NCBI GenBank assembly: GCA_036504255.1
Contig: DASXVL010000178.1
Span: 1 to 41,928, forward strand
Direction: 5' to 3'
DNA: 41,928 bases
Origin: Armatimonadota bacterium
GTDB taxonomy: Bacteria > Armatimonadota > Hebobacteria > CAIYQO01
In this document: positions 12,221 through 27,457 of the stretch, one piece after another
How the letters are laid out: each line of letters starts with the position of its first letter
Numbering within the stretch: position 1 is the stretch's first letter
The notes under the pieces: generated by a model
The model's database searches: none
Seen by the model: only the letters and a program-made list of their open reading frames with translations
Told to the model about the DNA's origin: nothing
Translations under genes and position numbers: made by a program

Positions 12221-12264
12221 CACGACGGCCGATAATAGCCGCCGTTGTGGTATTTTCGTATTTT
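12221..12264 (+). terminator. candidate intrinsic terminator after the hydrogenase genes
   Basis: Imperfect stem CACGACGGC..GCCGCCGTTG followed by the T-rich run GTATTTTCGTATTTTCC. Confidence 0.35.
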
Positions 12265-12325
12265 CCCATCGTCGGGCACAGTGTCCCCACCGGCTGTGCC
12301 CGCTGTCAAACTCATCGTAGGTACT

Positions 12326-14098
12326 ATGGCTATCGAGGATTTTTCTGCCTATCACGCGTATGCGGATGATTTATTGGCAACGTGTGATGAAGAGCAAACC
12401 ATCACACCGGGCGAAATGCGGCTGGCGATTTCGGCAGTGGAAGCCTTTGTCAAGGCCGTCAAGGCATATCGGTACTACCCACCCGAGTATCCCATGCTGG
12501 AGGAATTTCAACAGGAATTACTGACCACGCTCCAGGCCTATGTGGAACAACACACGATTTTATCCTTGACCATCACGGAAACGGCCTTTGCCCTGAAAGG
12601 CCGCCAGCTCTACGCCACGGAAGATCTCAAGAGCAGTGTGCCGTTCCTGTTCTACCGCGATGGTGTGCGGGAAATCTCCCTCTTCGAAGGCATCGAGGAA
12701 GGAGAAGTCCGCGATCTCATACAAATCCTCGTGCAGTGCGACCATACCGATAAGGCTGAGGATGACCTGGTCACACTGCTCTGGGAGAAGGAATTCGTGC
12801 ATCTCGATTACCTGGCCGTCGACGACTTCCTCGGCCAGGGTCCGGTCTTCATTCCAGAGACCGCCGAGGAATTCCGCCAGCATCTCGATCCCCGTCCGGT
12901 GGCCCATCACGAAGACGATGCGCTGTTCGACCGGCTCGGCGCACTCACCCACGAGAGCCCCTCCGAGTCGATCACCGATAAATTTGCCACCGAAATCGAC
13001 CTCTTTACGCTGTCCCCCACGGAAATGCGTGCCCTGCAAGAGGAGATCGATCATGATTGCGGTCCCTTCGGCGCTGCGCGCTACATCCCGCTGCTCTGCA
13101 ACCTGTTGACCACCGAGCAAGACCCTGCGCTGTTTCAACGGGAAATCGATGCGCTGCACGAGATTTTCGAGATGCTCTTGCCCCTGGGTGAATATCGCCG
13201 CGCCGCCGATCTGCTCACGCGTGTCCGCACGACGCTCGCATTATTTCCGCCGACGACGTGGCAGCATGCGCCGCTCAAAGCGCTGCTCCAACACGCGGTG
13301 CAGGGGCGTTGGTTGCCAGAGATTACCGCACGACTCCAACATCGCGAGCAGGGGCAGCACCTTGCGGATATCAAGGAGTTTCTGCTCCGACTCCCGAAAA
13401 CAGCGGTCGAACCGCTCATCCGCCTACTCGGCGATGTGTCTGACTACAAAACACGCGCCATGCTCTGTGAAGTACTCAGCGTTGTTGGCGCACAGGCGAC
13501 ACCGGTAATCGCGCCGTTTCTGTCCGACCCTCGCCCCACCCTCGTACAAGATCTGCTGAAAGTGTTGCGCCAGCTTAACCCGGAATCAGCCCTCCCGCTC
13601 TTTGCACGCGCCTGGCAGCACCGCGACGCCCAGGTGCGCAAAGCGGTCCTGAAAGCGGTGAGCGGCGTCGCCGGCGAGTACGCGGAACGCATACTCAGCA
13701 AAGGGCTGAGCGATCCGGATGAAAGTCTCCGCTGTCAGACCGCCATCTTCCTCGGCGGGCGGCAGACGGAGACCGCCTTGGCCACGCTGCTGCGCGTCGT
13801 ACATGCGAAAGGCTTTGATGCCCGCTCTCCGGCAGAGGTGCAGGCGTTTCTGGAAGGCTTGGGCGCGTCCCGCTCGCATCTCGCGCTGGACATTCTTGAG
13901 AGCCTCCTTGCCAGCCGTCCGTGGTTTGCCCGGCGCAAGGCCGATGAGATACGTCATCACGCGGCGCGCGCGCTGGGCATCGCCGGCACCCCGGAAGCGC
14001 TGGAGATGCTGCAAAAATACAGCACGGCGAAAGATGAGGCGATTCGCCGCGCATGTGTCCTGGCGCTGAAACTGGCATCACGGGGAGAACGCAAATGA
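12326..14098 (+). CDS. HEAT-repeat protein with an N-terminal module resembling that of the downstream HD-GYP protein
   Basis: C-terminal HEAT/PBS-lyase-like repeats (PFLSDPRPTLVQDLLKVL, RDAQVRKAVLKAV, LSDPDESLRCQTAIFLGG, EIRHHAARALGIAG, KDEAIRRACVLAL). I start it at the first ATG (12326, MAIEDF) rather than the TTG at 12245. Confidence 0.7.
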   Translation: MAIEDFSAYHAYADDLLATCDEEQTITPGEMRLAISAVEAFVKAVKAYRYYPPEYPMLEEFQQELLTTLQAYVEQHTILSLTITETAFALKGRQLYATEDLKSSVPFLFYRDGVREISLFEGIEEGEVRDLIQILVQCDHTDKAEDDLVTLLWEKEFVHLDYLAVDDFLGQGPVFIPETAEEFRQHLDPRPVAHHEDDALFDRLGALTHESPSESITDKFATEIDLFTLSPTEMRALQEEIDHDCGPFGAARYIPLLCNLLTTEQDPALFQREIDALHEIFEMLLPLGEYRRAADLLTRVRTTLALFPPTTWQHAPLKALLQHAVQGRWLPEITARLQHREQGQHLADIKEFLLRLPKTAVEPLIRLLGDVSDYKTRAMLCEVLSVVGAQATPVIAPFLSDPRPTLVQDLLKVLRQLNPESALPLFARAWQHRDAQVRKAVLKAVSGVAGEYAERILSKGLSDPDESLRCQTAIFLGGRQTETALATLLRVVHAKGFDARSPAEVQAFLEGLGASRSHLALDILESLLASRPWFARRKADEIRHHAARALGIAGTPEALEMLQKYSTAKDEAIRRACVLALKLASRGERK

Positions 14099-15561
14099 AC
14101 GCCTATGATGACCCACAGGTCGATAGCAATGAGCTGTTGCGACGCCATCAGCAACTGCCACGGCATTTCGGCCAAGCGTTCGTCGTCGTCTTTTACCGGG
14201 CCTATAAAGGCGCGGCCTTTTATGACCGCCAAAACGCGACCTTGCGCAGCCTCATCCGCGAGCTGCATTGGACGATCCACTCCATGCTCACGGCGTCCGA
14301 TCAGTTGGAAATCAAAATCATCCGTGACGCCTGCTTTTGCAATACCGCCATCATCCGTGCCGTTGCCGAACATTTCTCCAGTTATACCGGCTTCGTGCAG
14401 GCCTTGCGCCAGCGCGAAATCGGTGAATTGCATTTCAGCCCGAGTGTGACGGAGGAAGACCTCACTGCATTCATCTTCTTGCTGCGCGAGTTATCCGCTG
14501 TTCAAGATGATCCGTGCGAGTACTTAGCAGCGCAGTTGTTGCAACGTGGGCTCGTCTCGATAGAAGTCGGAAAGCTTGACATCGGCGAAGAACGGATGGG
14601 GACAGCGAATCCCGCGGATGTGAAGCGGCAGGCGAAATCCGTCTACTTCTCCAGCCTGGGCGTGACCAAAGAGCTCATGGAGGGTACGAAAGACCAAACG
14701 CTCAGCCTGCGGAAAGCCAAACGGCTCATGTTCAGCGCGGTTGACCTCATCACGCGCGATGAATCAGCCTTATTGGGGCTCACCTCCATCAAAAGCTATG
14801 ATGACTATACCTTCACCCATTGCGTCAATGTGGCGTTGTATGCCATCGCCATGGGAAACCGGCTACGCCTCTCCAAACGCAATCTTAGTTACCTGGGCAT
14901 CGCCGGACTCTTCCATGATCTGGGTAAAACGCTCATTTCACACGAGATTCTGGATAAACCCGGTGCGCTGACGCCGGAAGAGTGGGATGTCATCCGCACC
15001 CACCCGGCCAGCGGCGCCCGCCTCATTCTGCAGATGAAAGGATGGGGGCCGCTGGCGTCGCGCATGTTGGCGGCGAGTTTTGAGCACCATATCAAATATG
15101 ACCTCACCGGCTACCCGGCCATCGCCTATGATGAAAAGCCAAGCCTCTTCAGCCGTATCATCACCATCGCGGATGTGTATGATGCGCTGGCGCGCCCACG
15201 CGTTTACCGCAAAACTGCCTTTGTCACCGAGAAAATCCTCGCCGTGTTGCGTAAGGATAGCGGCACGCATTTCGACCCCACGTTGGTCAAAGTCTTCATC
15301 AATATGGTCGGCATCTATCCGCTCGGCGCCCTGGTACAACTCAACACCGGCGTGTTAGCCGTCGTGACGAAAATATCGCCAGAGCCGGATATGCTGCTAC
15401 ACCCGCAGATCTGTCTATTGGAGCATGAGGGGGAGACATACCGGAAGGGGATAGCGGTGGATCTGTCCGAGCGCGACACCACCGGACACTTCCCCCATAG
15501 CATCGCCCGCACCTTAGACCCCAACGACTACGGCATCAACCTGGAAGAACTTGCGCTGTAG
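14095..15561 (+). CDS. stand-alone HD-GYP domain protein (putative c-di-GMP phosphodiesterase) with no receiver domain
   Basis: HCVNVALYAIAMG, GLFHDLGKTLISHEILDKPGALTPEEW and HHIKYDLTGYPAI. The ATG at 14095 overlaps the upstream stop (ATGA at 14095-14098). Confidence 0.85.
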   Translation: MNAYDDPQVDSNELLRRHQQLPRHFGQAFVVVFYRAYKGAAFYDRQNATLRSLIRELHWTIHSMLTASDQLEIKIIRDACFCNTAIIRAVAEHFSSYTGFVQALRQREIGELHFSPSVTEEDLTAFIFLLRELSAVQDDPCEYLAAQLLQRGLVSIEVGKLDIGEERMGTANPADVKRQAKSVYFSSLGVTKELMEGTKDQTLSLRKAKRLMFSAVDLITRDESALLGLTSIKSYDDYTFTHCVNVALYAIAMGNRLRLSKRNLSYLGIAGLFHDLGKTLISHEILDKPGALTPEEWDVIRTHPASGARLILQMKGWGPLASRMLAASFEHHIKYDLTGYPAIAYDEKPSLFSRIITIADVYDALARPRVYRKTAFVTEKILAVLRKDSGTHFDPTLVKVFINMVGIYPLGALVQLNTGVLAVVTKISPEPDMLLHPQICLLEHEGETYRKGIAVDLSERDTTGHFPHSIARTLDPNDYGINLEELAL

Positions 15562-15656
15562 TCCCGCCCTGGTATATGTCCTGTGTGCGCCGGTTGCGCT
15601 ATGGAAGAAAACCGGACAGCTCTGCAGAGGCGATGAGGCGACAGCACTGTTTGGAA

Positions 15657-15728
15657 GGGTTCGAGCCACGCGAGACCCGCCGTTCCTTGCCATCCATCGG
15701 GAGAGCGGGTCTCGCTGTGCTCGAACCC
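15657..15728. other. long near-perfect inverted repeat (10 bp + 3x3 internal loop + 11 bp stem, 24-nt loop) in a 493-nt convergent intergenic gap
   Basis: GGGTTCGAGCCACGCGAGACCCGC (15657-15680) pairs with GCGGGTCTCGCTGTGCTCGAACCC (15705-15728). Further stems lie at 15744-15769, 15783-15810 and 15854-15885. Confidence 0.6.
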
Positions 15729-16054
15729 TCGTATACTATTTCTGTCAGTCCCCTGCTGATGGGATTGACATGTTATCGGATTCCTGGCGAAATAGCTACT
15801 GTGCTATCAGGGACGTGACTGGTGACCCTCCAAACGGTGCTAAGGACTTGTGGCTGGGCTGGTGGTCAGTCTCGGATCAGCCCAGGAATCCTGTCTAACA
15901 GTGTTCTCTTATGAGCCGATGCAGGGCCACGGGCCCGGAAGCGCGATGGGGTTAGTGTCGTGCGCACACCTGTACACGACGCAGCACCACGCCGCGATGA
16001 GAGCGGGTCGTGACACCGCACTCGTAACACGCCAGGTTTTGCGCCGCAGCGCGC

Positions 16055-17173
16055 TCACTCACTGATGAAAAGCTCGCTATCTGACTCTTCATCCAGTACG
16101 TCGCGCACTTGTTGACTCGTCAGTACCATCTGCCCGGCATCCTCGGCCTGGTGAATCTCGGAGATCAGCGTGGAGGCCAGCATTACCTCGACATATTCCG
16201 GCTTGAACTGCCGCCCGCTTTGCGCGCGTAGCTCGGCACGAATCATCTTTTCCGGTAAACGCGCCCGATAGCAGCGATCACTGCTCATGGCATGGACGGT
16301 ATCACAAATGGCCAGCACCTGTGCCTGCCAGGGAATGTCGTCCTCTTCCAGCCCGTCAGGATACCCGTGCCCGTCCCAGCGTTCATGATGGGATCGTATC
16401 ATGGGCGCGAGATCGGCGAGCGCTTCGACGTTCGTAATAATTTCGCCGCTAAGAATGGCATGATTCTGCATGATGGAGAGATTGCTCGGCGTTAAGGGCT
16501 CCTGCTTATTCAAGATTTCCTCGGGCACGCCGATTTTCCCCAGATCATGCACCAACGCCGCGCGTTTTAACCGCAAACGCTCCGCATTCGGCACGCCGAG
16601 TCGTTGGCAGAACTGATCGACCAGCCAGAGTACGGCCATACTATGCCGCCCGCTATACGCATCGCGCAATTCCAGACTCATCAGCAACGCGTAAATGGTG
16701 CCGTGTACGTGCGTCGTGATCTGATGTTTGGCCATTTCGACTTCTTTACGCAGTGACTGATAATCCTGTTGAATCGCCTCCATCATCGCCGTGCGCCGCA
16801 ATTCATCCATTCGCCGTTCAATGCCCCGCTGCACGATGCCTTCCAACTCCACCGGGTTAAAGGGTTTCGTCAGATAGTCGAACGCGCCCAGCCGCAGCGC
16901 TTTGCGCGCGGTATCCACCGTGGCGTATGCGGTGATCAGAATCACTTCGACCTGCGGATCCTTGGCTTTGATATTCTGGAGGACTTCAATGCCGCCCATA
17001 TCCGGCATGCGCAGATCGAGCAATACGACATCCGGGCGTACCTCGGACAACATATTGATGGCTTGAGATCCAGAGTTCGCAAGTGCGAGCTCATAGCGAT
17101 CCTTCAACAGCATACGGATCGATTCGCGGACCCCGATCTCGTCATCGACTATGAGAACCTTCTTTAGCGCCAT
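16055..17173 (-). CDS. response regulator with HD-GYP output domain (RpfG-like c-di-GMP phosphodiesterase)
   Basis: Canonical receiver (VLIVDDE, VVLLDLRMPDMGG, ILITAY, DYLTKPF). HD-GYP motifs VHDLGKIGVPEEIL and HHERWDGHGYPDGL. Confidence 0.9.
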   Translation of the reverse strand: MALKKVLIVDDEIGVRESIRMLLKDRYELALANSGSQAINMLSEVRPDVVLLDLRMPDMGGIEVLQNIKAKDPQVEVILITAYATVDTARKALRLGAFDYLTKPFNPVELEGIVQRGIERRMDELRRTAMMEAIQQDYQSLRKEVEMAKHQITTHVHGTIYALLMSLELRDAYSGRHSMAVLWLVDQFCQRLGVPNAERLRLKRAALVHDLGKIGVPEEILNKQEPLTPSNLSIMQNHAILSGEIITNVEALADLAPMIRSHHERWDGHGYPDGLEEDDIPWQAQVLAICDTVHAMSSDRCYRARLPEKMIRAELRAQSGRQFKPEYVEVMLASTLISEIHQAEDAGQMVLTSQQVRDVLDEESDSELFISE

Positions 17174-19151
17174 ACCACCCCTCCCTGCGCTCTTCGATTG
17201 CTTGGCGGATCGGTAACCGGCAGAGTACGCTTAAAATCGACTCGGCCATGGAGACTGATAACGTGCCGGCATGCTGATGCAGAATATACTGCGCGGTCGC
17301 AAGACCAAGATCGATATGTTGTTCCGCATTACCCATAAACTGCTGCCAGGGGTTGAGCAGCCATTCAGGCGTTAACGAAACGCTCGTCGCGACCTCGATA
17401 CGAATGAGTACGGCGTCGTCCTCCGTCGTCACCTGTAACGTGGCAGGCATCTTTTTCGAGGACAAGTGCGTTAAGGTACGCAAGATGCAGGTGAGCGCCG
17501 TTTCCAAGCGCTGTCCATCCGCCAGCAGGGTCGGCAAACTGATCGGCAAGGAAACGACGACCTCGGAACGCATCTGCTCCGTGTTGGTGACATTCTCGAT
17601 GAGCGGGGCCAGTTCCAACTCCCCGAACTGGAACTCCACGTCGTTCGTCAAGACCAAGAGCTGTTCCAGAATAAGACTGACGCGTCCGATCTCATGCTGA
17701 AGCACGGATTCGCAGAAATGCTGGAAGTCAGGGTCGCCGGCCTGCTTGGGGGCCAGCGTACTGAAGGTCGACAGCGCCACCAACGGGTTGCGTAATTCGT
17801 GCGCCAGATAATGGAGCACGTTGTTGATGACCTCCAGGTTGACACGGCGTTCCCGCTCAGCATCCGCGCGCTTCTCGGCCGACAGATCTTCGAGGAGTAA
17901 CAAGGCGCTCGGCGGCGTCGTCGCCAACACAAACCCCGTCACCGCCACCGGCATCCCGGTGGTGGAGATCGTCAGTTCCTGCGGGGGCAAATCTTCCCGG
18001 TGCGCCAGCGCATGGAACGCTAAGTCCCCGAGCGGAGACGGCAGCACCCGGAGATCCATGCCCTGCAGAGCGGAGCGGCTTTTCCCCACCATCGCGGCGG
18101 CGGAGGCGTTCACGAAGGCGATGCATTGATCTTGCCCCAACACCAGCGTGCCGGTCGGCATGACACTCAGCATATGCGCGGTCAGTTCCTGCTGCGCTTG
18201 TACGGTACGGTGCATCTGGCAGTGATGCAGCGCCGTGGCGATTTGTCCGCCCAGCGTAAACAGCGCCTCAAGCTCGGACGCACTGTAATGCTGCCCAATG
18301 AGGCGCGCGCCGATGCCAAGAATCCCGACGAGTTGCCCATCGCGCACAATCGGGACGGCAGCCACGGCTTGCATCAGATCCAACCCCGTCAGGATATCAC
18401 TCGCAATCGCGCTGCCATGTCCATCCTTGAGTAAAATGCGCCCCGTGCTGGCTAACCAGCGACACAGCGGCGCGGTCTGCGGAAAGGCGCAATACGGCAC
18501 CAGCGTGGAGGGGAGCCCGCGTTGCGCGCGACAGGAGAACAAACCGGTTCCCTGGTCACGTAGCAGGATGACCGCCCGACTGGTCTGGCAGGCCTGCTGC
18601 ACCCATCCGGCAAACAACTCGACCAGCGTCGCCTCTTCCAAACCGGAAAACATCTCAGCGAATTGCCGAAACTGTGGATTTTCCAACAAACTCGGCGTCT
18701 CGTTGACAATCGACGTCGCCGTGTTAAGCATCGGGGCAGGCATGATGGCCTTCGCGGGAGAAAATCCGGCGTCAGTGGTAGCGCCCTGGGACGATTGCCC
18801 GTGGTGTTCAACGCGCTTCAGACGGTGGAGAAACGGCTCTAGCCCTTCATCGAGGCGCAGCAAATCATCGGCCACACTCCACCATTCCTCCTCGGTGGGC
18901 CCAGGCGAAAAAGCCAGTAACGGCATCTGCGGGTGTAATTGTCGCAAATCTGTCGCCAATTGCATCCAGATGGCGCGCGGCCAGGTGAGGTCAACCAGGA
19001 TCACACTCACGGGTAACGTTTGGATCTGGTTAATCACTTCCGGCACCGAATGTGCCGTCACCAGGGCAATCGGAGGCTTTGCCAGCGCCAAGCGATCTTG
19101 TACGGCTGTGATATGTCGTTGTTCATGTGCAAGATAGCAGACTAGATACAT
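17142..19151 (-). CDS. REC-like / GAF / PAS / HisKA protein with a degenerate ATP-binding domain (pseudo-kinase, possible histidine phosphotransferase)
   Basis: H-box LAHELRNPL is retained (His codon at 17799-17801). The CA region is paralogous to the upstream kinase but has lost the N, G1 and G2 boxes (LTCILRTLTHL, EVATSVS, HIDLGLAT). The N-terminal receiver-like fold lacks the DD pair. Confidence 0.75.
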   Translation of the reverse strand: MYLVCYLAHEQRHITAVQDRLALAKPPIALVTAHSVPEVINQIQTLPVSVILVDLTWPRAIWMQLATDLRQLHPQMPLLAFSPGPTEEEWWSVADDLLRLDEGLEPFLHRLKRVEHHGQSSQGATTDAGFSPAKAIMPAPMLNTATSIVNETPSLLENPQFRQFAEMFSGLEEATLVELFAGWVQQACQTSRAVILLRDQGTGLFSCRAQRGLPSTLVPYCAFPQTAPLCRWLASTGRILLKDGHGSAIASDILTGLDLMQAVAAVPIVRDGQLVGILGIGARLIGQHYSASELEALFTLGGQIATALHHCQMHRTVQAQQELTAHMLSVMPTGTLVLGQDQCIAFVNASAAAMVGKSRSALQGMDLRVLPSPLGDLAFHALAHREDLPPQELTISTTGMPVAVTGFVLATTPPSALLLLEDLSAEKRADAERERRVNLEVINNVLHYLAHELRNPLVALSTFSTLAPKQAGDPDFQHFCESVLQHEIGRVSLILEQLLVLTNDVEFQFGELELAPLIENVTNTEQMRSEVVVSLPISLPTLLADGQRLETALTCILRTLTHLSSKKMPATLQVTTEDDAVLIRIEVATSVSLTPEWLLNPWQQFMGNAEQHIDLGLATAQYILHQHAGTLSVSMAESILSVLCRLPIRQAIEERREGWYGAKEGSHSR

Positions 19152-21565
19152 AGCAGTTCAGCTTCCGCCTGCGTTACGGCAGGCAAGATAATAGTGACAA
19201 CTAAGCCCGATCCCGGTGGGCATTCAGCGCGAATCTCACCTCCGTGTGAACGTACAAACTGGAAGGTGAGCGCGAGCCCAAGCCCGTGTCCACCGGTTTT
19301 CGTGGTAAATAACGGTTCAAAGATGCGCCGCAAATCGTCCGGCGGTACGCCCGGCCCCGAATCGGCAATGCGACAGATCAAGTTATGCTCCAGCGCCTCA
19401 ACTGAAATGGAGAGATCTCCACCGTGTGGCATGGCCTGCACTGCATTCATCAACACATTCAACAGCGCCTGATACAACTGATCGACCATACCATTGACGG
19501 CAGGAAGCTCCTCGGCAAACCGTGTGATCAGTCGTACATGATGGCGTTCGCAATCTGCCTGAATCAAGCCGATGAGCCGTTCAATCACCTCACGCAGATC
19601 GACTTGACCACGATCATCCGACGGTCTGCGGACCAGGTCCAACATCTGACCGACAAGACGGCTAATACGTTCAACTTCTTTCACCACCATGGGGCCGAAT
19701 TCCTCTCGAAACTCGGGATCGTCGTACTTTTGCGGTAAAAGGTGGGCAAATGTTTGGATGGGCACCAGCGGATTCTTGATTTCATGGGCCAGACTCGCCG
19801 CCATAGCCCCCATCGAGCTAAAGCGTTCGGCCTGCAATTTCTCTTGTTCCAACGCGCGCAACGTCGAGAGGTCGCGAAACACGATCAGGTGACCGTCCGC
19901 AACGTCCCAGCGTCGACGGAACCGTGTCACGGTTACCAATACCGGTATTTCGCTGCCGTCATGCTTGGTTAACACGGTTTCCACGGCGTGCTCTCCCGTG
20001 TCATGCGTGGGTAATTCGGGGACACCGATGGTCGCCAGGCGCCGTCCCAGGGCGTCCACAGACGACACACCGGTAATAAATTCTGCCGCTGGATTGAAGG
20101 TAATGACGCGCCCACGCGGGTCGATGGCAATTACCCCGTCCTGCATTGAATGCAATAAGCGCTCATGATATTCGTTCAGCAGCACCATTTCATCGTAATG
20201 CCGGGCATTATCCAGCGCAATCGCCGCTTGCTTGCCGAGGATGCGCAACAGGCCGATATCATCGGTGGTGTACACATCGCTGGAGAGACGTTCGCCCAGG
20301 AAGACGATGCCACACAGACGATCGCCGGCAATCAACGGAATCGCGACCGCCATGCCCCACTCCTTGAGACGGAGCCCAATATCATGTTCCACACCGCGCA
20401 GGCAAATCAACTCGTCCGCGACCAACACCTCATCGGTATCCATGGCGTATGACAGAATCGGCTCGATACCCGAGAGTGTGCGCGGCAGATCCTGCCACGA
20501 CTCCGTCGTAGACACCTGCGTGAGCACCTCGTCATTGCCTGGAAGATAGACGGCGACACCGCGGGGACGCAGCGTCCGAATCATCGCATTGACGAACGTT
20601 TCAACGAGAATCTCCCGATCACGCGCCGAGGCGAAGGCGCTGCCCGCCTCACGCAAGGTTAAGCGATAGTCATAGACGCTTTTGAAAAAGCGCGTATCCA
20701 CCACGTGTTGCACGTAACGGCGTAACGGTTGAAAGGCCAGCGCCATGATAAACGCCATGATAAAGCTGCCCGGCCGGGGAAACGGCGAATACTTCGCCAG
20801 TGCGCCATCCAACACCGGCACGAGAAAGGCGAAGAGCAACGATAATGTGCCGATCGTCGCCGAATAGACTAAACCCGCGCGCAGCACGATCTTGATATCC
20901 ATCAAGCGATAGCGCACGATGGCATAGGTCGTCGTCGTCGTGACAAACAACGAGGACAGCGAGCCATAGGACGCATAGCGTGATGACCCGGTGATCACCG
21001 GGAGAATGAGGACCGGGATGGATGAGGCAACCAAGCCTATCATCCCGAGCAAAATATAGCGGATTTGCAGACGTTCGAGCCCGCTGACGTGATTGAGTTT
21101 ATGGAGCAGATGCATGGACCCCGCCAAGCCGCAGGCGACAATCCACAGCGTAAACAACGGGACTAATGGGCCGACGGACGCCGCGACACCCCAGGCCTCA
21201 AAGCTGATATCGGCGATCAGCAACGGTGTCCAGATAAAATAGAGCCAGGGTAGCGCGAGCAGCGTTAAGATGAGGGACATACGGCGAAAATGTGCCGAAC
21301 GAAACGGAAAATCGGCGCAAAACCAGATACCGCTCACAGCAATAACCATGACGCAGAGGAAGGTAGCGCGCGCGAGATGCAGAGCGGTATCATGACTGGG
21401 GTGGGTATGCATGATCGCCACGCAGCACATCCAGGCGGCGGTGCCCAGAATGTACCAGGCGAACGTCCGCCCGCCTCGGTGCGCGGGTGTTCTCACCAGA
21501 ATAATCACCACCAGCACCAGGTTGTAGAGCGCAGCCAAAAAGAGTATGGGGTAGACGAATCCCAT
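19142..21565 (-). CDS. multi-pass membrane sensor histidine kinase (7TM-type N-terminus, GAF, PAS, HisKA, HATPase_c)
   Basis: About 7-9 hydrophobic segments in the first 300 aa. H-box LAHEIKNPL. Intact N box LLNVLMNAVQAM, G1 IADSGPGVPP and G2 GGHGLGLAL. I start it at the ATG at 21565 (MGFVYPILF), 5 nt after the upstream stop, rather than at 21646. Confidence 0.85.
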   Translation of the reverse strand: MGFVYPILFLAALYNLVLVVIILVRTPAHRGGRTFAWYILGTAAWMCCVAIMHTHPSHDTALHLARATFLCVMVIAVSGIWFCADFPFRSAHFRRMSLILTLLALPWLYFIWTPLLIADISFEAWGVAASVGPLVPLFTLWIVACGLAGSMHLLHKLNHVSGLERLQIRYILLGMIGLVASSIPVLILPVITGSSRYASYGSLSSLFVTTTTTYAIVRYRLMDIKIVLRAGLVYSATIGTLSLLFAFLVPVLDGALAKYSPFPRPGSFIMAFIMALAFQPLRRYVQHVVDTRFFKSVYDYRLTLREAGSAFASARDREILVETFVNAMIRTLRPRGVAVYLPGNDEVLTQVSTTESWQDLPRTLSGIEPILSYAMDTDEVLVADELICLRGVEHDIGLRLKEWGMAVAIPLIAGDRLCGIVFLGERLSSDVYTTDDIGLLRILGKQAAIALDNARHYDEMVLLNEYHERLLHSMQDGVIAIDPRGRVITFNPAAEFITGVSSVDALGRRLATIGVPELPTHDTGEHAVETVLTKHDGSEIPVLVTVTRFRRRWDVADGHLIVFRDLSTLRALEQEKLQAERFSSMGAMAASLAHEIKNPLVPIQTFAHLLPQKYDDPEFREEFGPMVVKEVERISRLVGQMLDLVRRPSDDRGQVDLREVIERLIGLIQADCERHHVRLITRFAEELPAVNGMVDQLYQALLNVLMNAVQAMPHGGDLSISVEALEHNLICRIADSGPGVPPDDLRRIFEPLFTTKTGGHGLGLALTFQFVRSHGGEIRAECPPGSGLVVTIILPAVTQAEAELLCI

Positions 21566-21570
21566 AAGGC

Positions 21571-22311
21571 TTAGACTTCCAACAGCACAGGCGCACTGCG
21601 CGTCGCTGACACAAGCCAGCACTGCTCCGCGTAGACGGACTGGCAAACGAGCGGTCGTAATCCCAACTCTGGGAGGAGCGCCGTAATCTCGTCCACCGCG
21701 AAAAAGTTATACTCCCCCGCTGCCCAACGGCGCTGAATATCCGCGTTTGCCCGCCTCACCGCCAATAAGGCCGGCAGCGCGGCGACGGTACGCGCCCAAC
21801 GCGTTAGGCGTGCGGCAAGCGGCAACTGCCGCAGCGCGGCAAAATGCGCCTGGGCAATCGCCGCAGGCGTGGAATGCGGATGACGGTCACACAAGAGCAA
21901 TCGCCCGCCCGGTTTCAACACGCGGGCAATTTCACGCAATGCCGCGCGCTGATCCGGCAGCGCATAGAGCACGTTGCACATCACGACGACGTCAAATTCC
22001 GCATCGCCGAACGCGAGGCCGGCGCACAGGTCGGCCTCAGCGTGTCGCACATGCGCACGGTCCGCACATTTGGCGCGCGCACGCGCCAGCATCGCCGCGG
22101 AAAAATCCACGCCGGTCACCTGCAACTGCGGCTGGAGACGGGTCGCCAATTCTTCGAAATTGCCGGTACCGCACCCGGCGACCAGCAACTGCTCATGCGG
22201 GGACAAGGCCGCCGCCGTGTACACCGTCTGCAACAGCGCCTCATAGGGTAACCACAACGTCAGCGCATCATAACCTTTGACCGCGTACCCATCCCAAAAA
22301 CTCGCTGACAT
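21571..22311 (-). CDS. class I SAM-dependent methyltransferase
   Basis: Motif I LLVAGCGTGNF, an acidic loop VTGVDFS, then DVVVMCNVLYAL and LKPGGRLLL. The start ATG shares one base with the upstream TGA (22311). Confidence 0.8.
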   Translation of the reverse strand: MSASFWDGYAVKGYDALTLWLPYEALLQTVYTAAALSPHEQLLVAGCGTGNFEELATRLQPQLQVTGVDFSAAMLARARAKCADRAHVRHAEADLCAGLAFGDAEFDVVVMCNVLYALPDQRAALREIARVLKPGGRLLLCDRHPHSTPAAIAQAHFAALRQLPLAARLTRWARTVAALPALLAVRRANADIQRRWAAGEYNFFAVDEITALLPELGLRPLVCQSVYAEQCWLVSATRSAPVLLEV

Positions 22312-23570
22312 CAGGCCTCCTCGTAGCGCGCAACCAGTATGCCGGAGTGCGTGCCGCCCACACCGGCGACATTAATGAGTACACGACGGACACGCGCGGT
22401 GCGCGCTACGTTCGGCACATAGTCCAGCCGGCACCCTTCAGCGGGCGCGGTAAAATTGATCGTCGGCGGGACGCGCTGATGGCGAATCGCCAGGCATGCC
22501 GCGGCGAGATTCAACCCACCGCTGCAGGCGAAGGATTGGCCGACCGCTCCGCGAATCGAGGTCACGGGGATAGAGAAGGCATGTTTACCCAACGCCGTTT
22601 CAATGCCACGACTTTCCGAAACGTCGGCCACGGCAAATCCCGTGCCATGGGCGATAACCCAATCGACGTCGGTCGGCGGAATCCCGGCATCAAACAAGGT
22701 ACGCTGCATGGTCATGGCAAAGGCTTCGCCGGTCTCGTCGAGAGCGGACATGGGCAATGCCTCTTCGACGTTTCCCGCCCCGACTAACTCACCATAGATC
22801 CGCGCGCCACGCAGTCGTGCATGCGTTTCACTTTCCAGCATGACGGCGGAACCGCCCTCCATCAGCACAATACCGTCATGATCCACGGAAAAAGGCCGGG
22901 GGATATTTCCGCCATCAATGGGCGTCGGCGCGAGAATGCCGCTGCGGTAGATCGCCGCCCAAATCGACGGAAAGAATGGGGCATCCGATCCACCGACGAG
23001 CATCATATCCGCTTTACCGGCGCGAATCTGTTCTGCGCCCCAGACAATCGTATCCATTCCGGAGACACAGCCCGATGAATAGGTGGTCGATGGGCCACGC
23101 AATCCATAGTAGATCGCCACGTGTGTCGTGGTGGCGCAGGGGGTAAATTCAGACCAGAGCCAACGACTGATGCCTTGCTCGCCACGCTGAAAGTAGCGCC
23201 GGGCTTGTTCCTCCACCGTCTCCCCCAACCCACCGATCACCGTGCCGAAGCTGGAACCTATGCGGTCGAGATTCTCGTCGGAGAGTTGCACCCCGGCGTC
23301 ATGCAGCGCTCGGTCGGCGGCCACCAGCGCCAGTTGGGAAAAACGCAACAGGTGTTTGACGTCACGCGGACGTACCTGCGGCATTTCGCGTGACAGGTCG
23401 AAGTCATGGAACTGGCCGCCATAGGTATACCGATGGTCACCGACATCCCAGCCGTGGATGGGACCGATGCAGGAACGTCCAGCGTACAACGCCTCGCCGA
23501 ATTCATCCACGGTGTGCCCAAGGGGGCAGGCTATGCCAAATCCGGTTATCATAACGCGCTGTCTAGCCAT
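22311..23570 (-). CDS. beta-ketoacyl synthase, FabF/KAS II-like but with a divergent active site
   Basis: Collinear with E. coli FabF by eye: RVMITGFGIACPLG, SSGCVSG (active Cys), IAHGTG (His), PPTINF and NVAGVGGTH. Start taken at the ATG at 23570, preceded by a GGAG RBS; the ORF extension to 23639 overlaps the upstream gene. Confidence 0.8.
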   Translation of the reverse strand: MARQRVMITGFGIACPLGHTVDEFGEALYAGRSCIGPIHGWDVGDHRYTYGGQFHDFDLSREMPQVRPRDVKHLLRFSQLALVAADRALHDAGVQLSDENLDRIGSSFGTVIGGLGETVEEQARRYFQRGEQGISRWLWSEFTPCATTTHVAIYYGLRGPSTTYSSGCVSGMDTIVWGAEQIRAGKADMMLVGGSDAPFFPSIWAAIYRSGILAPTPIDGGNIPRPFSVDHDGIVLMEGGSAVMLESETHARLRGARIYGELVGAGNVEEALPMSALDETGEAFAMTMQRTLFDAGIPPTDVDWVIAHGTGFAVADVSESRGIETALGKHAFSIPVTSIRGAVGQSFACSGGLNLAAACLAIRHQRVPPTINFTAPAEGCRLDYVPNVARTARVRRVLINVAGVGGTHSGILVARYEEA

Positions 23571-25938
23571 GGTTCTCCTGTAGCGGCTCCGGCATCTTTC
23601 TCCGGACCACACGCTCAATTGCAGCTTGCAAGGTCTCACGGCTCACCGGCTTTTGCAGAATGCCATCATAGAGCGCCGTGTATTCGTCTTCCAGGTTCAG
23701 CGAGCCGGATAACAACATGATGCGTGTCTGCGGTCGCAGGCGGCGTACGGCAATGGCGACGACATCGCCGGTCTCTCCATACATCACCAGGTCGGTGATG
23801 ACCAGATCGAATACTTCGGCGTTACAGCATCGAATCGCCTCGGCCGCAGAATTCACGGTTTGCACCTGATGTCCCATTTGCCGCAACAATTGCCCAAGCA
23901 TCTCCGTGATCTCTTCATCATCATCCACCAGCAGGATGCGTAAGATTGGCGAAACCGCCTCGTGCGTATCCACCGACAGCGGCGAGCTACAGCGCGGCAC
24001 TTCGACACGCACGGTCGTCCCTGTGCCTTCTTCACTCTCCAGACGAATCACGCCGCCATGCTGTTGTACGATGCGATAGGATACGCTGAGCCCGAGCCCC
24101 GTCCCTTTGCCGCCTTTAGTGCTAAAAAACGGATCAAATGCCCGCGCCATGATGCCTGGCGACATGCCCACCCCGGTATCCTGCACGGATAACCAGGCGG
24201 TGCGCGTATCGGCGCCACACGACAGCGTCAGTGCCCCGCCGTTCGGCATCGCGTGCACCGCATTGGTCATCAGATTTGTCACCACTTCGCGAAATTCGAC
24301 CGCGTTGCCGGCGACCCAAATATTCGGCGGGCAATCGAACGCCAAGATGACGGCTTTGCGGTCGAGTTGTGGTTGCAGCAATTCGGCGACGTCGTGCAAG
24401 ATATCGCTCAAATGGAAGGGCAACAGGGCGGTGCCTTCGTTTTTGCGTCCGAAGACGCTCACGCGTTGAATGATCTCGCGTGCATCGAGGGTGGCGCGCT
24501 CCAGGCGTGGCAACCGGTCGTACACGTGTTGCAGGGTCGGCGCCATCTTCAAGAGTTCCAAATGACACCCGATGCCCATCAGGATATTATTGAAATCATG
24601 CGCAATGCCCGCCGCCATCTCGCCCAAGGCGCGCATCTTGGTGTCTTCGAGCATGCGCTCTTGCGCCAGTTTGAGCGCCTGGTGTGTTTCGATATTGCAC
24701 AGCGCAGTGCCGACCATGGCGGCCACCAGCATCAACCAATCGGCGTCATGGCGTGAAAACGGTCGAGGCTCCAACCGTTCCACGGTTAATATGCCGATGG
24801 TCTGCAGTTCAACGACGAGTGGAATTACGGCGATGGCATTGATCGAGCGGTTCACATTCGGATAATTCGGAAATAATTGCGGCCAATTCGTCCCTAACAG
24901 CACCGGCTTTCCGGTATGCCAGGCCACTTGCAATGGTGTATCCGCGCCAGGGCACTGACTGCCGACAGGGAAGACGGCGCCCGTCAAACGTGCGCTCAAT
25001 GTCCGCAGGACAAATGTCTGCGAGTCCGGGCGATAATCCCAGTACCCGATGCGTTCACACGGCAACGCTTGCCGCACCTGTTCGAACACGGCGAGCAAAA
25101 TGTCGTTGGCGCTGTGAGTGACCGTCAGCATGCGTGCTAAGTGATTCAGTACGCGCTGCCAGGTCGCCGGGTTGGGGAACTCGCCATAGCGCGAGAGACG
25201 CGCTAACGCTTGTTCCGCGGTACGTACCAATAACAGCGTGGCGAGAATCAAAGCTGCCGCTTCTTCAGGTGGGGGGGAAAGCTCGATGAGCGCGAACAGC
25301 TTGTCGGCGGCCTTCAGCGGAAAGATGACCTGGTTTTCATGCACGACCGGTACACCGCGCTGTGCGGCCTCAGTGAGTTCGTGGCGCTTTCCCAGTACCG
25401 AGTGGCTACTCGCATCGCCCTGCGCTACTTCAATCAACGGACTATCATCGTTGATAAATCGCCACACATTGATCGATGTTGGCGAGGTGAGCGCGTGGAG
25501 CTCGGCGATGAGTTGCGCCAGTACCTCCCCCGGGTCCGACAGCATGGCCATTGCGTGTAACGCCGTCAGGGAAAATAAGGGATGCTGCAGCCAGGGGAGC
25601 AAACGGTGAAGCCAGCGGGCGCGGTCATCCGGGGCCAGCGCTGTTTGTCCCTGCAGTACCGTATGTAGCGCGAGCAGCCCGAGGCGTTGCGTCTCATCCA
25701 CCGGCAAATGGGTATATCGGGGATCAAATGCCTGCTCAGCCAGGGTGGCCATGTGCAACGCCTCTGTCGGCGCAAGGGGGGAGGCATCGTGAATGAGCGC
25801 CTCGACAAAAAGGCGTAAGTAACCGGAAACGTCGTCATCGGGTTGATGAGACGCTTCGCAAAGTAAAGCCAACCATTGTGTTGTCCAGGCATCCCCGATG
25901 TTCATGTCGGCGGCGGAGATTAACGGAGAATTGTGCAT
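23563..25938 (-). CDS. hybrid sensor histidine kinase (unknown N-terminal domain, GAF, HisKA, HATPase_c, C-terminal REC)
   Basis: H-box IAHDFNNILMGI. NLMTNAVHAM, VQDTGVGMSP and GGKGTGLGLSVS. C-terminal receiver with ILLVDDDEE, LVITDLVM, MLLSGS and ILQKP. Confidence 0.85.
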   Translation of the reverse strand: MHNSPLISAADMNIGDAWTTQWLALLCEASHQPDDDVSGYLRLFVEALIHDASPLAPTEALHMATLAEQAFDPRYTHLPVDETQRLGLLALHTVLQGQTALAPDDRARWLHRLLPWLQHPLFSLTALHAMAMLSDPGEVLAQLIAELHALTSPTSINVWRFINDDSPLIEVAQGDASSHSVLGKRHELTEAAQRGVPVVHENQVIFPLKAADKLFALIELSPPPEEAAALILATLLLVRTAEQALARLSRYGEFPNPATWQRVLNHLARMLTVTHSANDILLAVFEQVRQALPCERIGYWDYRPDSQTFVLRTLSARLTGAVFPVGSQCPGADTPLQVAWHTGKPVLLGTNWPQLFPNYPNVNRSINAIAVIPLVVELQTIGILTVERLEPRPFSRHDADWLMLVAAMVGTALCNIETHQALKLAQERMLEDTKMRALGEMAAGIAHDFNNILMGIGCHLELLKMAPTLQHVYDRLPRLERATLDAREIIQRVSVFGRKNEGTALLPFHLSDILHDVAELLQPQLDRKAVILAFDCPPNIWVAGNAVEFREVVTNLMTNAVHAMPNGGALTLSCGADTRTAWLSVQDTGVGMSPGIMARAFDPFFSTKGGKGTGLGLSVSYRIVQQHGGVIRLESEEGTGTTVRVEVPRCSSPLSVDTHEAVSPILRILLVDDDEEITEMLGQLLRQMGHQVQTVNSAAEAIRCCNAEVFDLVITDLVMYGETGDVVAIAVRRLRPQTRIMLLSGSLNLEDEYTALYDGILQKPVSRETLQAAIERVVRRKMPEPLQENHG

Positions 25939-26124
25939 GGCGGGCGCTGGCTCACAATCGCAGAAATCCCAGGATTGGGAGAAGTGCTTCTCTTAGTACT
26001 ACTACCGTACTCCGAAAACGGTGCTTTAGATTTACGCTCATCGCAGCTTGTATGGCAAAATAGCGTTCTATCGGCGCTTACGCTCGATTGGCGAATGTAA
26101 ATCGTGAAGTACGGTAGTAATATT

Positions 26125-26286
26125 AGGGCGCACCAGGGAATACCCTCGACATTTTGCCGTGTCCGCTTGGCCCCTGGCGTTGTTGAGTGTGCTGAAAATA
26201 TGACCTCATATGTCTGCGCACGCTCGCCTAGCCAGCGGCCAAGCGTCCTGCGGCATAATTGTCGAGGTTATTCCCTGGTGCGCCCT
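26125..26286. repeat. MITE-like long imperfect palindrome (27-nt terminal inverted repeats with 1 mismatch, plus internal pairing)
   Basis: AGGGCGCACCAGGGAATACCCTCGACA (26125-26151) against the reverse complement of 26260-26286, AGGGCGCACCAGGGAATAACCTCGACA. Inner arms GCCG..CGCTTGGCC.CTGGC also pair. Confidence 0.6.
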
Positions 26287-26351
26287 TATTATTGTAACAT
26301 ATTCCATTCCTTTGGGGTAGCTGCGCCGATTATCTCCCTCGTACGCTAAGC

Positions 26352-26380
26352 TTGTCGGGTGAGCATGGTTGCTTTATACT
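26352..26380 (+). promoter_or_regulatory. candidate sigma70 promoter for the porin-like gene
   Basis: TTGTCG (26352-26357), a 17-nt spacer, then TATACT (26375-26380), about 90 nt upstream of the ATG at 26468. Confidence 0.4.
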
Positions 26381-26384
26381 ACTG

Positions 26385-26408
26385 ACGAAAGCGGAAAAAC
26401 GCTTTCGT
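26385..26408 (+). promoter_or_regulatory. perfect 9-bp hairpin in the predicted 5' UTR of the porin-like gene
   Basis: ACGAAAGCG - GAAAAA - CGCTTTCGT, immediately downstream of the candidate -10 element. Confidence 0.3.
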
Positions 26409-26467
26409 TATCTGCGTCGATACATGCGAATCACTGACGACACTCTTATGAAGCAAGGAACACGATC

Positions 26468-27457
26468 ATGCAACGAAAAAGTCTTCTCCTCCCTGTGCTG
26501 ATAGCCATCAGCCTCATGTTTGGCGTAACGGCAGGCGCGCAAAGCAACTTCAGCGCCCTTCCGGTATTGAGTAACCTGGCCTTCGGCTGGTCCTCCATGA
26601 GTGGCGTGGACCCCACGCTCAATATGCTCACCGCCTTTGCCCCCACCATGGTGGGCCTCTCGGAGGCCGGCTACCGCAACGGGGTGGAAGGCGTCAAAGG
26701 GCGAATGACGTTTGGCGATCTCAAAATCGACAACAACTTTGAGTCGGCCATCACGACGGTCGGTCCCGGCCTCTTCCGGCTTGGCCACTATGGCTACAAC
26801 AGCAACACGGCCGCCATCCCGAATCTCGGTTTACCCCCCGGCGTTTTGACGCATACACGCGGCGACGCCATTGAACTTGCCTATGCGCAAACGATCCACA
26901 ATACCACCATTGGCCTAAGCGTGGTACCGCAAGATTCTACCAGCATCCAAGCGGTGGGTGGTGGCACGACGCTGATCGCCGGTGAGGCGAAAACCGACTT
27001 CGGCGGACGGATCGGTTTTATCCAGCGCCTGCCGCACGGCGTCCGTGTCGGAGCGGATTATAGCTATCAGAAGGGCACCGCGACAGCGGACACGCTGCCG
27101 CCGTTTCCGCCAACCACGTCTTCCGATGAATACATCACCCGCGCCGCCACCTATGGCGCCTCCTGGCAAGCGCGCCCTGACACCATTGTGTATGGGTCAT
27201 ACCAGAACCTGCTGGCGACCGGGCATACCTTCGGGAGTCGTAACGCGAATCAACTCTGGTTTGGCACGCAACACGATCTTTCAAAATCGGTGGCGATCCG
27301 CCTCAATTACCTCGATGGTGGCCAGAATTATTCCGTGCAATGGAAAACGAAGGTCGGCTTGCTCAACGTGGCGTATACCCATAAGGCGCTACGCAATGCC
27401 GAGGAAATCTTGGGCAGCGGCGATGCCCTCTTTGGCGCACTGGCGTTAGCCTGGTAA
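26468..27457 (+). CDS. secreted beta-barrel (porin/OMP-like) protein of unknown family
   Basis: Signal peptide MQRKSLLLPVLIAISLMFGVTAGAQS. Alternating hydrophobic/polar strands rich in G/Y/T. C-terminal aromatic residue (..FGALALAW). AAGGAA RBS. Confidence 0.45.
   Translation: MQRKSLLLPVLIAISLMFGVTAGAQSNFSALPVLSNLAFGWSSMSGVDPTLNMLTAFAPTMVGLSEAGYRNGVEGVKGRMTFGDLKIDNNFESAITTVGPGLFRLGHYGYNSNTAAIPNLGLPPGVLTHTRGDAIELAYAQTIHNTTIGLSVVPQDSTSIQAVGGGTTLIAGEAKTDFGGRIGFIQRLPHGVRVGADYSYQKGTATADTLPPFPPTTSSDEYITRAATYGASWQARPDTIVYGSYQNLLATGHTFGSRNANQLWFGTQHDLSKSVAIRLNYLDGGQNYSVQWKTKVGLLNVAYTHKALRNAEEILGSGDALFGALALAW

Follow-up and report, generated by a model that had tools for sequence, protein, structure and literature searches.

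A FabF-like ketosynthase paired with a seven-transmembrane sensor kinase in Armatimonadota: a candidate synthase-receptor cassette with a predicted c-di-GMP output

Two described bacterial systems keep the genes of a signal synthase beside those of its own sensor kinase: the diffusible signal factor (DSF)/Rpf system of Xanthomonas (PMC3749722) and the Phc system of Ralstonia (PMC8578825). In Rpf the synthase is RpfF/RpfB, the sensor kinase is RpfC, and RpfG, a receiver (REC) domain joined to an HD-GYP domain, is a cyclic di-GMP (c-di-GMP) phosphodiesterase whose hydrolytic activity is turned on by phosphorylation (PMC3749722). In Phc the signal is a lipid-type methyl ester, PhcR is a receiver with a histidine kinase domain and no DNA-binding domain, PhcQ is a REC-only protein, and the output runs through the LysR regulator PhcA (PMC8578825). 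Here we analyze a locus from a metagenome-assembled genome (MAG) of the Armatimonadota. The window is the whole contig, 41,928 bp long, and the system in question is an operon of six genes in which a FabF-like ketosynthase (KAS) with an altered active site is encoded together with a membrane sensor kinase carrying a HisKA_7TM domain and a REC-HD-GYP response regulator. We believe this cassette belongs with the synthase-receptor signaling cassettes; the KAS-linked form is newly seen, and its function is one that we infer from sequence. The original prediction for this DNA was a Phc-like system in which a self-made acyl-type signal is relayed to c-di-GMP hydrolysis. The relay from a self-made signal to c-di-GMP is still the best reading of the locus, but the specific parallel to Phc is not supported.

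Six minus-strand open reading frames (ORFs) run from 25938 to 16055 in the ORF list, all of them where they had been predicted. The first is an optional gene for a hybrid sensor kinase of 791 aa (23563..25938) with the Pfam architecture GAF-HisKA-HATPase_c-REC. It is followed by the KAS (22311..23570, 419 aa), which has the N- and C-terminal ketoacyl-synt domains and forms a distinct clade, and by a class I S-adenosylmethionine (SAM)-dependent methyltransferase (MTase; 21571..22311, 246 aa; Methyltransf_11/25), the variable tailoring component of the cassette. The membrane sensor kinase comes next (19142..21565, 807 aa; HisKA_7TM-GAF-PAS-HisKA-HATPase_c), and we call it the 7TM kinase. The fifth gene encodes a soluble pseudo-kinase of 669 aa (17142..19151) with a REC-like N-terminus, a GAF domain, a PAS-like domain, a HisKA/DHp domain and a degenerate CA domain. 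The last encodes the response regulator (16055..17173, 372 aa; REC-HD_5, the latter an HD-GYP domain), a predicted c-di-GMP phosphodiesterase. Searches with Pfam and other profile hidden Markov models uphold the domain assignments made originally. A seventh component had been overlooked: on the plus strand, divergent from the operon, lies a conserved gene for an outer-membrane beta-barrel of 329 aa (26468..27457) with a signal peptide and a FadL/TodX-like fold. The 529 nt between the barrel gene and the operon (25939..26467) are presumed to hold promoter and regulatory sequence and contain inverted repeats.

All five junctions were read base by base, and each is as it had been claimed. The stop of the hybrid kinase and the start of the KAS lie in ATGGCTAG, an 8-nt overlap (23563-23570). 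The KAS and the MTase have 1 nt in common within TGATG (22311), and the MTase is separated from the 7TM kinase by a gap of 5 nt, TAA being followed by GCCTT and then ATG (21566-21570). The 7TM kinase and the pseudo-kinase overlap by 10 nt, reading ATGTATCTAG (19142-19151), and the pseudo-kinase and the response regulator overlap by 32 nt (17142-17173). Shine-Dalgarno-like purine runs stand upstream of the starts of the KAS (AGGAG), the MTase (GAGGAGG) and the response regulator (GGGAGGGG). The KAS start is M24 and the 7TM kinase start is M28 of their maximal ORFs, and both agree with the Pfam domain starts and with the lengths of the orthologues. From the overlaps we would expect the six genes to be co-transcribed. 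Promoter and terminator scans of the locus gave scores no better than shuffled sequence, and an Rfam scan of it gave nothing above background.

The arrangement is not peculiar to this contig. We gathered loci through KAS homologues and a pseudo-kinase profile and annotated each of them against the window proteins. There are 15 non-redundant Armatimonadota KAS loci, with KAS identities of 55-66%, and the order KAS, 7TM kinase, pseudo-kinase, REC-HD-GYP is found in all of them. The 10-nt overlap between kinase and pseudo-kinase recurs across the loci, as does an overlap of 29-35 nt between pseudo-kinase and response regulator, at protein identities of 50-65%. Because order and overlaps are kept at such divergence, the arrangement is more than chance, and the idea of a tight operon is borne out by the junctions and their recurrence together. 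The gene-neighborhood check that the original prediction called for therefore takes the pairing of enzyme and kinase beyond this genome, to 15 loci, and the homologues concerned are not housekeeping enzymes. Scanning with a profile of the pseudo-kinase, a conservative pattern-based search that yields lower bounds, gave at least 4 loci in GTDB genomes and at least 10 in metagenomes. The hybrid kinase is present in 4 of the 15 loci (the window, L003, L009 and L017). On one long-contig assembly (L004:11244-16343) three of the genes, those of the MTase, the 7TM kinase and the pseudo-kinase, are broken into 2-3 ORFs apiece, owing either to frameshifts in the assembly or to decay of this copy. Our literature searches turned up no account of a HisKA_7TM cassette linked to a ketosynthase or of this type of signaling in Armatimonadota.

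The KAS is the component on which the argument turns. Both ketoacyl-synt domains match over the full length of the protein (PF00109, 5.6e-39; PF02801, 8.8e-22), as is required of a KAS I/II enzyme of the thiolase fold. It aligns full length to FabF structures at about 36-38% identity (E 1e-72), including that of Bacillus subtilis FabF (PDB 4ls5). With FabF/KAS II it shares the two-domain thiolase fold, and the alignment to 4ls5 shows that it keeps the nucleophilic Cys and the first catalytic His. It differs from FabF at the rest of the active site: the second catalytic His is replaced by Gln, a conserved Lys by Arg, and the gating GFGGHN loop by GVGGTH. The Cys, His, Gln, Arg and GVGGTH motifs are invariant across 41 members of the KAS clade. 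The protein scores 311.2 bits against the TIGR03150 fabF model, below the equivalog cutoff of 493.75. The clade is also sharply bounded. A word-indexed search found 46 clusters at 55-69% identity and then none above 40%; an exhaustive HMMER search of 1.84 billion representatives clustered at 50% identity found exactly one from the KAS clade, and the next single-domain match in that search was 40% identical at 307 bits.

The gene also stands outside any fab or acyl carrier protein (ACP) context, again a difference from FabF. Pfam and domain scans of the ORFs and an ACP-motif scan found no ACP, reductase, dehydratase or lipid-assembly gene on the 41.9-kb contig, so what had been said of the immediate neighborhood is true of the whole contig. 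The source annotation of the KAS is 3-oxoacyl-ACP synthase II. We reject a housekeeping FabF identity in view of the cutoff, the altered triad and the clade-restricted distribution. We believe the KAS is a specialized enzyme and probably an active one, since the Cys and the first His are strictly conserved and the substitutions are conservative, with an amide from Gln much like that of the Asn in KAS III and Arg in place of Lys. The Gln puts an amide into the FabF scaffold where enzymes of the KAS III type have Asn; that the chemistry has been retuned by it, for example to a non-canonical condensation, is speculation. Literature searches found no description of a KAS I/II-type active site of the Cys-His-Gln kind.

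The nearest outgroup bears on which parts of the cassette belong together. This sister KAS clade is 35-40% identical and comprises about 25 clusters; its second His is also Gln, the Lys is kept, and its motif is SIKSMIGQP. In the readable neighborhoods (L026, L027, L028 and the P0057 contig) the sister-clade KAS adjoins a HisKA_7TM-GAF-PAS kinase, so the linkage is present in two deep KAS clades. Three cassettes (L026:8001-17251, L028:2580-11503 and L027:7367-12931) run KAS, 7TM kinase, (kinase), pseudo-kinase homologue and a REC-GAF-PAS-HK-REC protein, where HK is a histidine kinase. The 7TM kinases of the sister clade are 31-32% identical to that of the window. In these three loci the pseudo-kinase homologue has 680 aa and is 27-30% identical (E 1e-50 to 1e-56), and the first REC of the REC-GAF-PAS-HK-REC protein is 48% identical to the receiver of the window response regulator. 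On the P0057 contig the KAS is divergent from a 7TM kinase and a sigma54 response regulator. In L005 and L025 the sequence ends just after the KAS, and the next gene begins with a hydrophobic, membrane-type N-terminus that by eye looks like the beginning of a HisKA_7TM kinase. Tailoring enzymes are absent from the sister clade, and its KAS still lies beside the 7TM kinase, which argues that the constant pair is the Gln-type KAS and the 7TM kinase. On this evidence we believe the evolutionarily stable unit is Gln-type KAS, 7TM kinase, pseudo-kinase and cognate receiver, with the tailoring and the output swapped around it. Just upstream of the sister-clade KAS, and divergent from it, is a gene for a signal-peptide protein of 267-270 aa with no Pfam match (L028:1634-2446, L026:7078-7881, L027:6421-7233 and L005:7071-7883, all -). 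Its position is like that of the Armatimonadota barrel gene, and homology between the two is not detectable.

The tailoring step is where the Armatimonadota loci vary. The class I MTase is found in 11 of the 15 KAS loci. In L006, L007 and L024 it is missing, and a radical SAM protein of 520 aa precedes the KAS instead, overlapping the start of the KAS in the first two (L006:1702-3270 and L007:6871-8433) and lying about 90 nt upstream of it in the third (L024:8350-9909). In L016 there is no MTase between KAS and kinase, and the upstream region of that locus is cut off. All told, three or four loci have a radical SAM protein where the others have the MTase. The radical SAM protein has a clear Radical_SAM Pfam domain and no B12-binding Pfam match. 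Its best NCBIfam matches, among B12-type methylases and enzymes that modify lipids, are PhpK, HpnJ, the ladderane-lipid B12 radical SAM family and HpnR, all far below their cutoffs. It seems to have taken over the tailoring step without being homologous to the MTase, and this interchange argues for a real small-molecule product.

The MTase itself is annotated at its source as UbiE. Its best NCBIfam equivalog scores fall well short of the cutoffs (UbiE 67 vs 216, UbiG 35 vs 103, BioC 48.5 vs 185), and it is also far below Mtf2 and every other curated NCBIfam cutoff. Members of its clade are 51-63% identical, after which there is a gap down to 39% or less; the nearest MTase outside the clade (P0148, 38% identity) has a gene neighborhood unrelated to the cassette. 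We reject a housekeeping UbiE, UbiG or BioC identity in view of the curated cutoffs and the clade-restricted distribution. The claim that neither enzyme is a housekeeping one is thus sound, as both fall below curated cutoffs and the KAS has an altered triad. Alignment with methyltransferases in the PDB covers the SAM-binding Rossmann core and nothing else, so no substrate is inferred from those relatives. The MTase thus belongs to a clade specific to the cassette, and yet it is dispensable.

The barrel, too, is restricted to the cassette. The protein begins with a signal peptide and ends in an aromatic residue, and it has no match in Pfam (Toluene_X included) or NCBIfam. Among 5.8e9 clusters there are only 24 homologues, every one of them on a cassette-bearing contig. 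The gene is found at the equivalent divergent position in nine loci: the window, L001, L003 (where there are two copies), L004, L012, L013, L014, L019 and L020. An AlphaFold2 (AF2) model built from the family alignment has a mean predicted local distance difference test (pLDDT) score of 90.9 and folds as a barrel built of about 14 strands, plus helices at the N-terminus. In a Foldseek search of the PDB the top 17 matches are all FadL, TodX, TbuX or CymD (E 7e-11 to 7e-9, TM-score 0.49-0.56), and the next is OmpG (E 4.5e-7). All four are channels through which fatty acids and hydrophobic aromatics pass the outer membrane. They are the best structural matches, and the barrel resembles FadL/TodX in its strand number and its N-terminal helical segment. 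The model is suggestive of a FadL-like channel for hydrophobic compounds.

The signaling proteins can be read from their motifs. The 7TM kinase has seven hydrophobic segments within residues 1-246, and in both it and the hybrid kinase the H, N, G1 and G2 boxes are all intact. The hybrid kinase has a REC domain and no Pfam match to HPt. Its residues 1-270 have no Pfam match even at E<=10, and this N-terminal stretch may be a cytoplasmic sensor domain of a kind not yet described.

Over its GAF-PAS-DHp part the 7TM kinase is paralogous to the pseudo-kinase (E 2e-17). In the latter Pfam finds a GAF domain, a weak PAS and HisKA, and no HATPase_c. The N-box Asn and the G1 motif DxGxG are missing in all 14 orthologues, which confirms the dead ATPase domain predicted for this gene; with its H-box kept and its N and G1 boxes absent, the protein does not qualify as an active HisKA-type kinase. 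In the orthologue alignment D54 and H451-E-L-R-N-P (H-box HELRNPL) are invariant. The architecture first given for it was REC-like-GAF-PAS-HisKA. The GAF and HisKA domains stand, the PAS is weak, and the REC-like N-terminus is weakly supported: matches to Response_reg are below threshold (E about 1e-3 in 4 of 5 orthologues), hhalign to REC gives E 0.004 with Asp54 in the phospho-acceptor column, and a low-confidence single-sequence AF2 model (pLDDT 40) has a beta-alpha repeat pattern at the N-terminus.

Judged by these motifs, the pseudo-kinase would be unable to bind ATP while keeping Asp54 and His451, and it could be a phosphotransfer or phosphatase module like Spo0F/Spo0B or ChpT. A His-Asp-His-Asp path from a kinase to Asp54, to His451 and on to the response regulator is possible. 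For comparison we use Spo0B and ChpT, which have a DHp-type domain with a His and a kinase-like domain without ATP boxes. The pseudo-kinase is similar in having a DHp-type helical domain with a conserved His followed by a CA-like domain that lacks the ATP-binding boxes. It differs in being much larger, with its REC-like N-terminus, GAF and PAS, and it gives no match to the ChpT family PF10090.

The two domains of the response regulator are clear in Pfam (Response_reg 3.4e-31, HD_5 1.8e-31). The motifs HDLGK and HHERWDGHGYP (HHExWDGxGYP) are invariant in 15 orthologues, and the phospho-acceptor region of the receiver is conserved. Its best NCBIfam match is a family of REC-HD-GYP c-di-GMP phosphodiesterases, below cutoff. 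We predict that it is a phosphorylation-controlled c-di-GMP phosphodiesterase, and by its motifs it looks competent.

Taken together, these observations lead us to propose a synthase-plus-receptor cassette, in which the cell makes a lipid-like ligand of its own, the co-encoded kinases sense it, and the signal is passed on to c-di-GMP hydrolysis. We would give this proposal about an even chance of being right. The KAS would use the ordinary acyl-ACP and malonyl-ACP of the cell to make a beta-ketoacyl-derived, lipid-like small molecule; it is taken to draw on housekeeping ACP, since the contig itself encodes none. The product would be methylated, here by the class I MTase and in sibling cassettes by a B12-type radical SAM enzyme, and being hydrophobic it may cross the outer membrane through the divergent FadL-like barrel, as the fold of the latter suggests. 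The 7TM/GAF/PAS kinase would sense it, and possibly the hybrid kinase and the pseudo-kinase would as well, by their GAF domains. The motifs suggest that the membrane kinase would then autophosphorylate and pass the phosphoryl group to the REC-HD-GYP protein, directly or through the pseudo-kinase. Phosphorylation would turn on c-di-GMP hydrolysis by the response regulator, as it does for RpfG, and c-di-GMP would fall. What the analysis shows is the layout of the genes, their catalytic motifs, a linkage kept in two deep KAS clades and the fold of the barrel. That there is a product, what it is, which protein senses it and in which direction phosphate flows are all things that we infer.

It is important to realize that several observations weigh against this proposal. 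The functional reading as a whole is drawn from sequence and synteny. The sister-clade cassettes lack the MTase, the radical SAM enzyme and the barrel, all three, and a lone FabF-type KAS has no obvious release or tailoring step with which to make a free diffusible molecule. The exchange of His for Gln and Lys for Arg could weaken decarboxylative condensation and not retune it. The H-box His is replaced by Asp (ADEIKNP) in the pseudo-kinase homologue of the sister clade, so a role in phosphotransfer cannot be general. As for the barrel, its match to FadL is moderate: the TM-score is about 0.5 with a root-mean-square deviation of about 8 A, the protein is about 100 aa shorter than FadL/TodX, the identity is about 10-13%, and Pfam Toluene_X does not match it. 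Beta-barrels readily match one another in fold searches. For these reasons we treat the likeness as suggestive.

A different explanation for the same genes is that the KAS is a sensory partner. It would bind, or be acylated by, acyl-ACP or malonyl-ACP and report the state of fatty-acid synthesis or of the membrane to the kinases by protein contact, so that c-di-GMP follows lipid metabolism. Contact between a kinase and a synthase has a precedent in the binding of RpfF by the REC domain of RpfC (PMC3749722). The sister-clade KAS, which stands beside the kinases with no enzyme for tailoring or release, fits this idea, as does the lack of a dedicated ACP gene on the contig, and the two altered residues, Gln for His and Arg for Lys, might stall catalysis at a bound intermediate. 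However, a nucleophilic Cys and a first His that are strictly conserved, with conservative substitutions elsewhere, fit an active enzyme, and the methylating enzymes and the hydrophobic-channel-like barrel of the Armatimonadota are hard to explain if there is no product. We consider this explanation rather unlikely. A product could also be made and never leave the cell, as an intracellular ligand or cofactor for the cytoplasmic GAF and PAS domains of the three kinase-like proteins, in which case no cell-cell signaling need be involved. Heme-oxygenase genes sit in operons with the bacteriophytochromes they supply, and the case here would be similar. In its favor, the enzymes are cytoplasmic, all three kinase-like proteins have GAF and two have PAS, and the pseudo-kinase is soluble with a conserved GAF. 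Against it, the invariant partner of the KAS across the clades is specifically the 7TM kinase, the cassette-specific outer-membrane barrel suggests envelope traffic, and the reductase and dehydratase that a chromophore-like polyene would need are absent. We give it a small chance, similar to that of the sensory partner.

The remaining explanations fare much worse. The original prediction noted that the sub-order MTase, membrane histidine kinase, REC-plus-kinase-like protein and response regulator resembles phcB-S-R-Q (PMC8578825), and in its strongest form this would make the locus a true homologue of Ralstonia phcBSRQ with an MTase-made 3-hydroxy-fatty-acid methyl-ester signal. The parallel rests on the MTase. 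That enzyme is swapped for a radical SAM protein in L006, L007 and L024, the sister clade has none, and the invariant partner is the KAS; it is moreover a generic class I enzyme of 246 aa without a specific family assignment. The window kinases carry 7TM, GAF and PAS modules, and PhcQ is REC-only with output through the LysR protein PhcA (PMC8578825), whereas here the regulator is an HD-GYP protein and the contig has no LysR gene among its ORFs of at least 150 aa. We find true homology to Phc extremely improbable. Finally, the KAS and MTase might be ordinary enzymes of lipid or quinone metabolism, on one transcript with a signaling system to which they have no relation. Their source annotations, 3-oxoacyl-ACP synthase II and UbiE, speak for this. 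Both proteins are nevertheless far below the curated family cutoffs, both clades are confined to the cassette, the active site of the KAS is unlike that of FabF, and the linkage of KAS and kinase survives at the 35-40% identity that separates the clades. This last explanation is largely refuted, and what probability it keeps is very slight.

Returning to the synthase-plus-receptor proposal, one can extend it well past the Armatimonadota. The Gln-type FabF-like KAS and the HisKA_7TM-GAF-PAS kinase would then be an unrecognized autoinducer family spread over several phyla, in which the KAS makes a new class of lipid or ketide signal and the 7TM domain is its receptor. The Armatimonadota would have added methylation and a FadL-like channel, and the output would have been rewired among c-di-GMP hydrolysis, sigma54 regulation and hybrid-kinase relays. 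This is a tentative extension, and we think it doubtful as a whole.

If the proposal is true, this is the first candidate chemical-signaling system for the Armatimonadota, an almost uncultured phylum. The cassette would also offer a source of ligand for the orphan HisKA_7TM sensor domain, which figures only in domain censuses in the two papers that name it, and its ketosynthase is of the KAS I/II type with an active site made of Cys, His and Gln. The module is compact, consisting of one or two enzymes plus a kinase. It would be an example of modular rewiring, in which one synthase-receptor pair is combined with interchangeable tailoring (class I MTase or radical SAM enzyme) and interchangeable outputs (HD-GYP protein, sigma54 regulator or hybrid kinase).

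Other features of the contig deserve mention. The inverted repeats upstream of the operon have arms of 50 nt (26105-26154 and 26257-26306) that are 78% complementary, and there are two shorter pairs. Downstream of the operon, between convergent gene ends, is a hairpin with 25-nt arms (15656-15729). These flanking repeats could be regulatory, a terminator, or an element like a repetitive extragenic palindrome (REP) or a miniature inverted-repeat transposable element (MITE). The AT skew of the plus strand reaches its maximum of about 0.24 at 20001-23000, where the MTase, the KAS and the 7TM domain are encoded, against 0.0-0.1 elsewhere; this is probably an effect of coding-strand composition. 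Two further HD_5 (HD-GYP-type) genes bring the number of such genes within 42 kb to three. One (3179-4240, -) has a weak receiver domain, and the other (14053-15561, +) is convergent with the end of the operon and is preceded by a gene for a HEAT-repeat protein (12245-14098). The region 7627-12107 (+) encodes a NuoF-like (Complex1_51K) protein and then a [FeFe]-hydrogenase large-subunit fusion with a thioredoxin-like 2Fe-2S domain, which suggests an electron-bifurcating-type hydrogenase in this Armatimonadota MAG.

How does the cassette compare with the two systems with which we began? As in Rpf, the gene of a fatty-acid-pathway-type synthase adjoins that of a membrane sensor kinase, and the response regulator has the exact architecture of RpfG with its HD and GYP motifs intact. 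The differences are in the parts. The synthase of the window is a FabF-type KAS of the thiolase fold, whereas RpfF is a crotonase, and domain scans of the ORFs found no enoyl-CoA hydratase/crotonase domain on the contig. Its sensor is HisKA_7TM-GAF-PAS without REC or HPt, whereas RpfC is a hybrid kinase with five transmembrane segments and an HPt domain. The window adds the pseudo-kinase, an optional hybrid kinase, a methylating enzyme and an outer-membrane barrel, and its host is one of the Armatimonadota while the host of Rpf is one of the Proteobacteria.

With Phc the comparison uses the architecture described in PMC8578825 rather than the sequences of PhcB, PhcS and PhcR. Both operons have a SAM methyltransferase, a membrane histidine kinase, a protein free of a DNA-binding domain that joins a receiver (in the window a REC-like region) to a kinase domain, and a further receiver (PMC8578825). 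Set beside PhcR, the pseudo-kinase has a sub-threshold REC-like N-terminus and HisKA, together with GAF and PAS domains and a degenerate CA domain. In the window the MTase is a variable accessory and the KAS is constant, whereas PhcB is the constant synthase. The window ends in an HD-GYP enzyme and Phc ends at PhcA; there is no LysR-type protein among the contig ORFs of at least 150 aa. Because the cassette has no crotonase, no HPt kinase of the RpfC type, a dispensable MTase and no output of the PhcA type, we believe it is a member of neither system, and that its logic is closest to that of DSF/Rpf and next closest to that of Phc.

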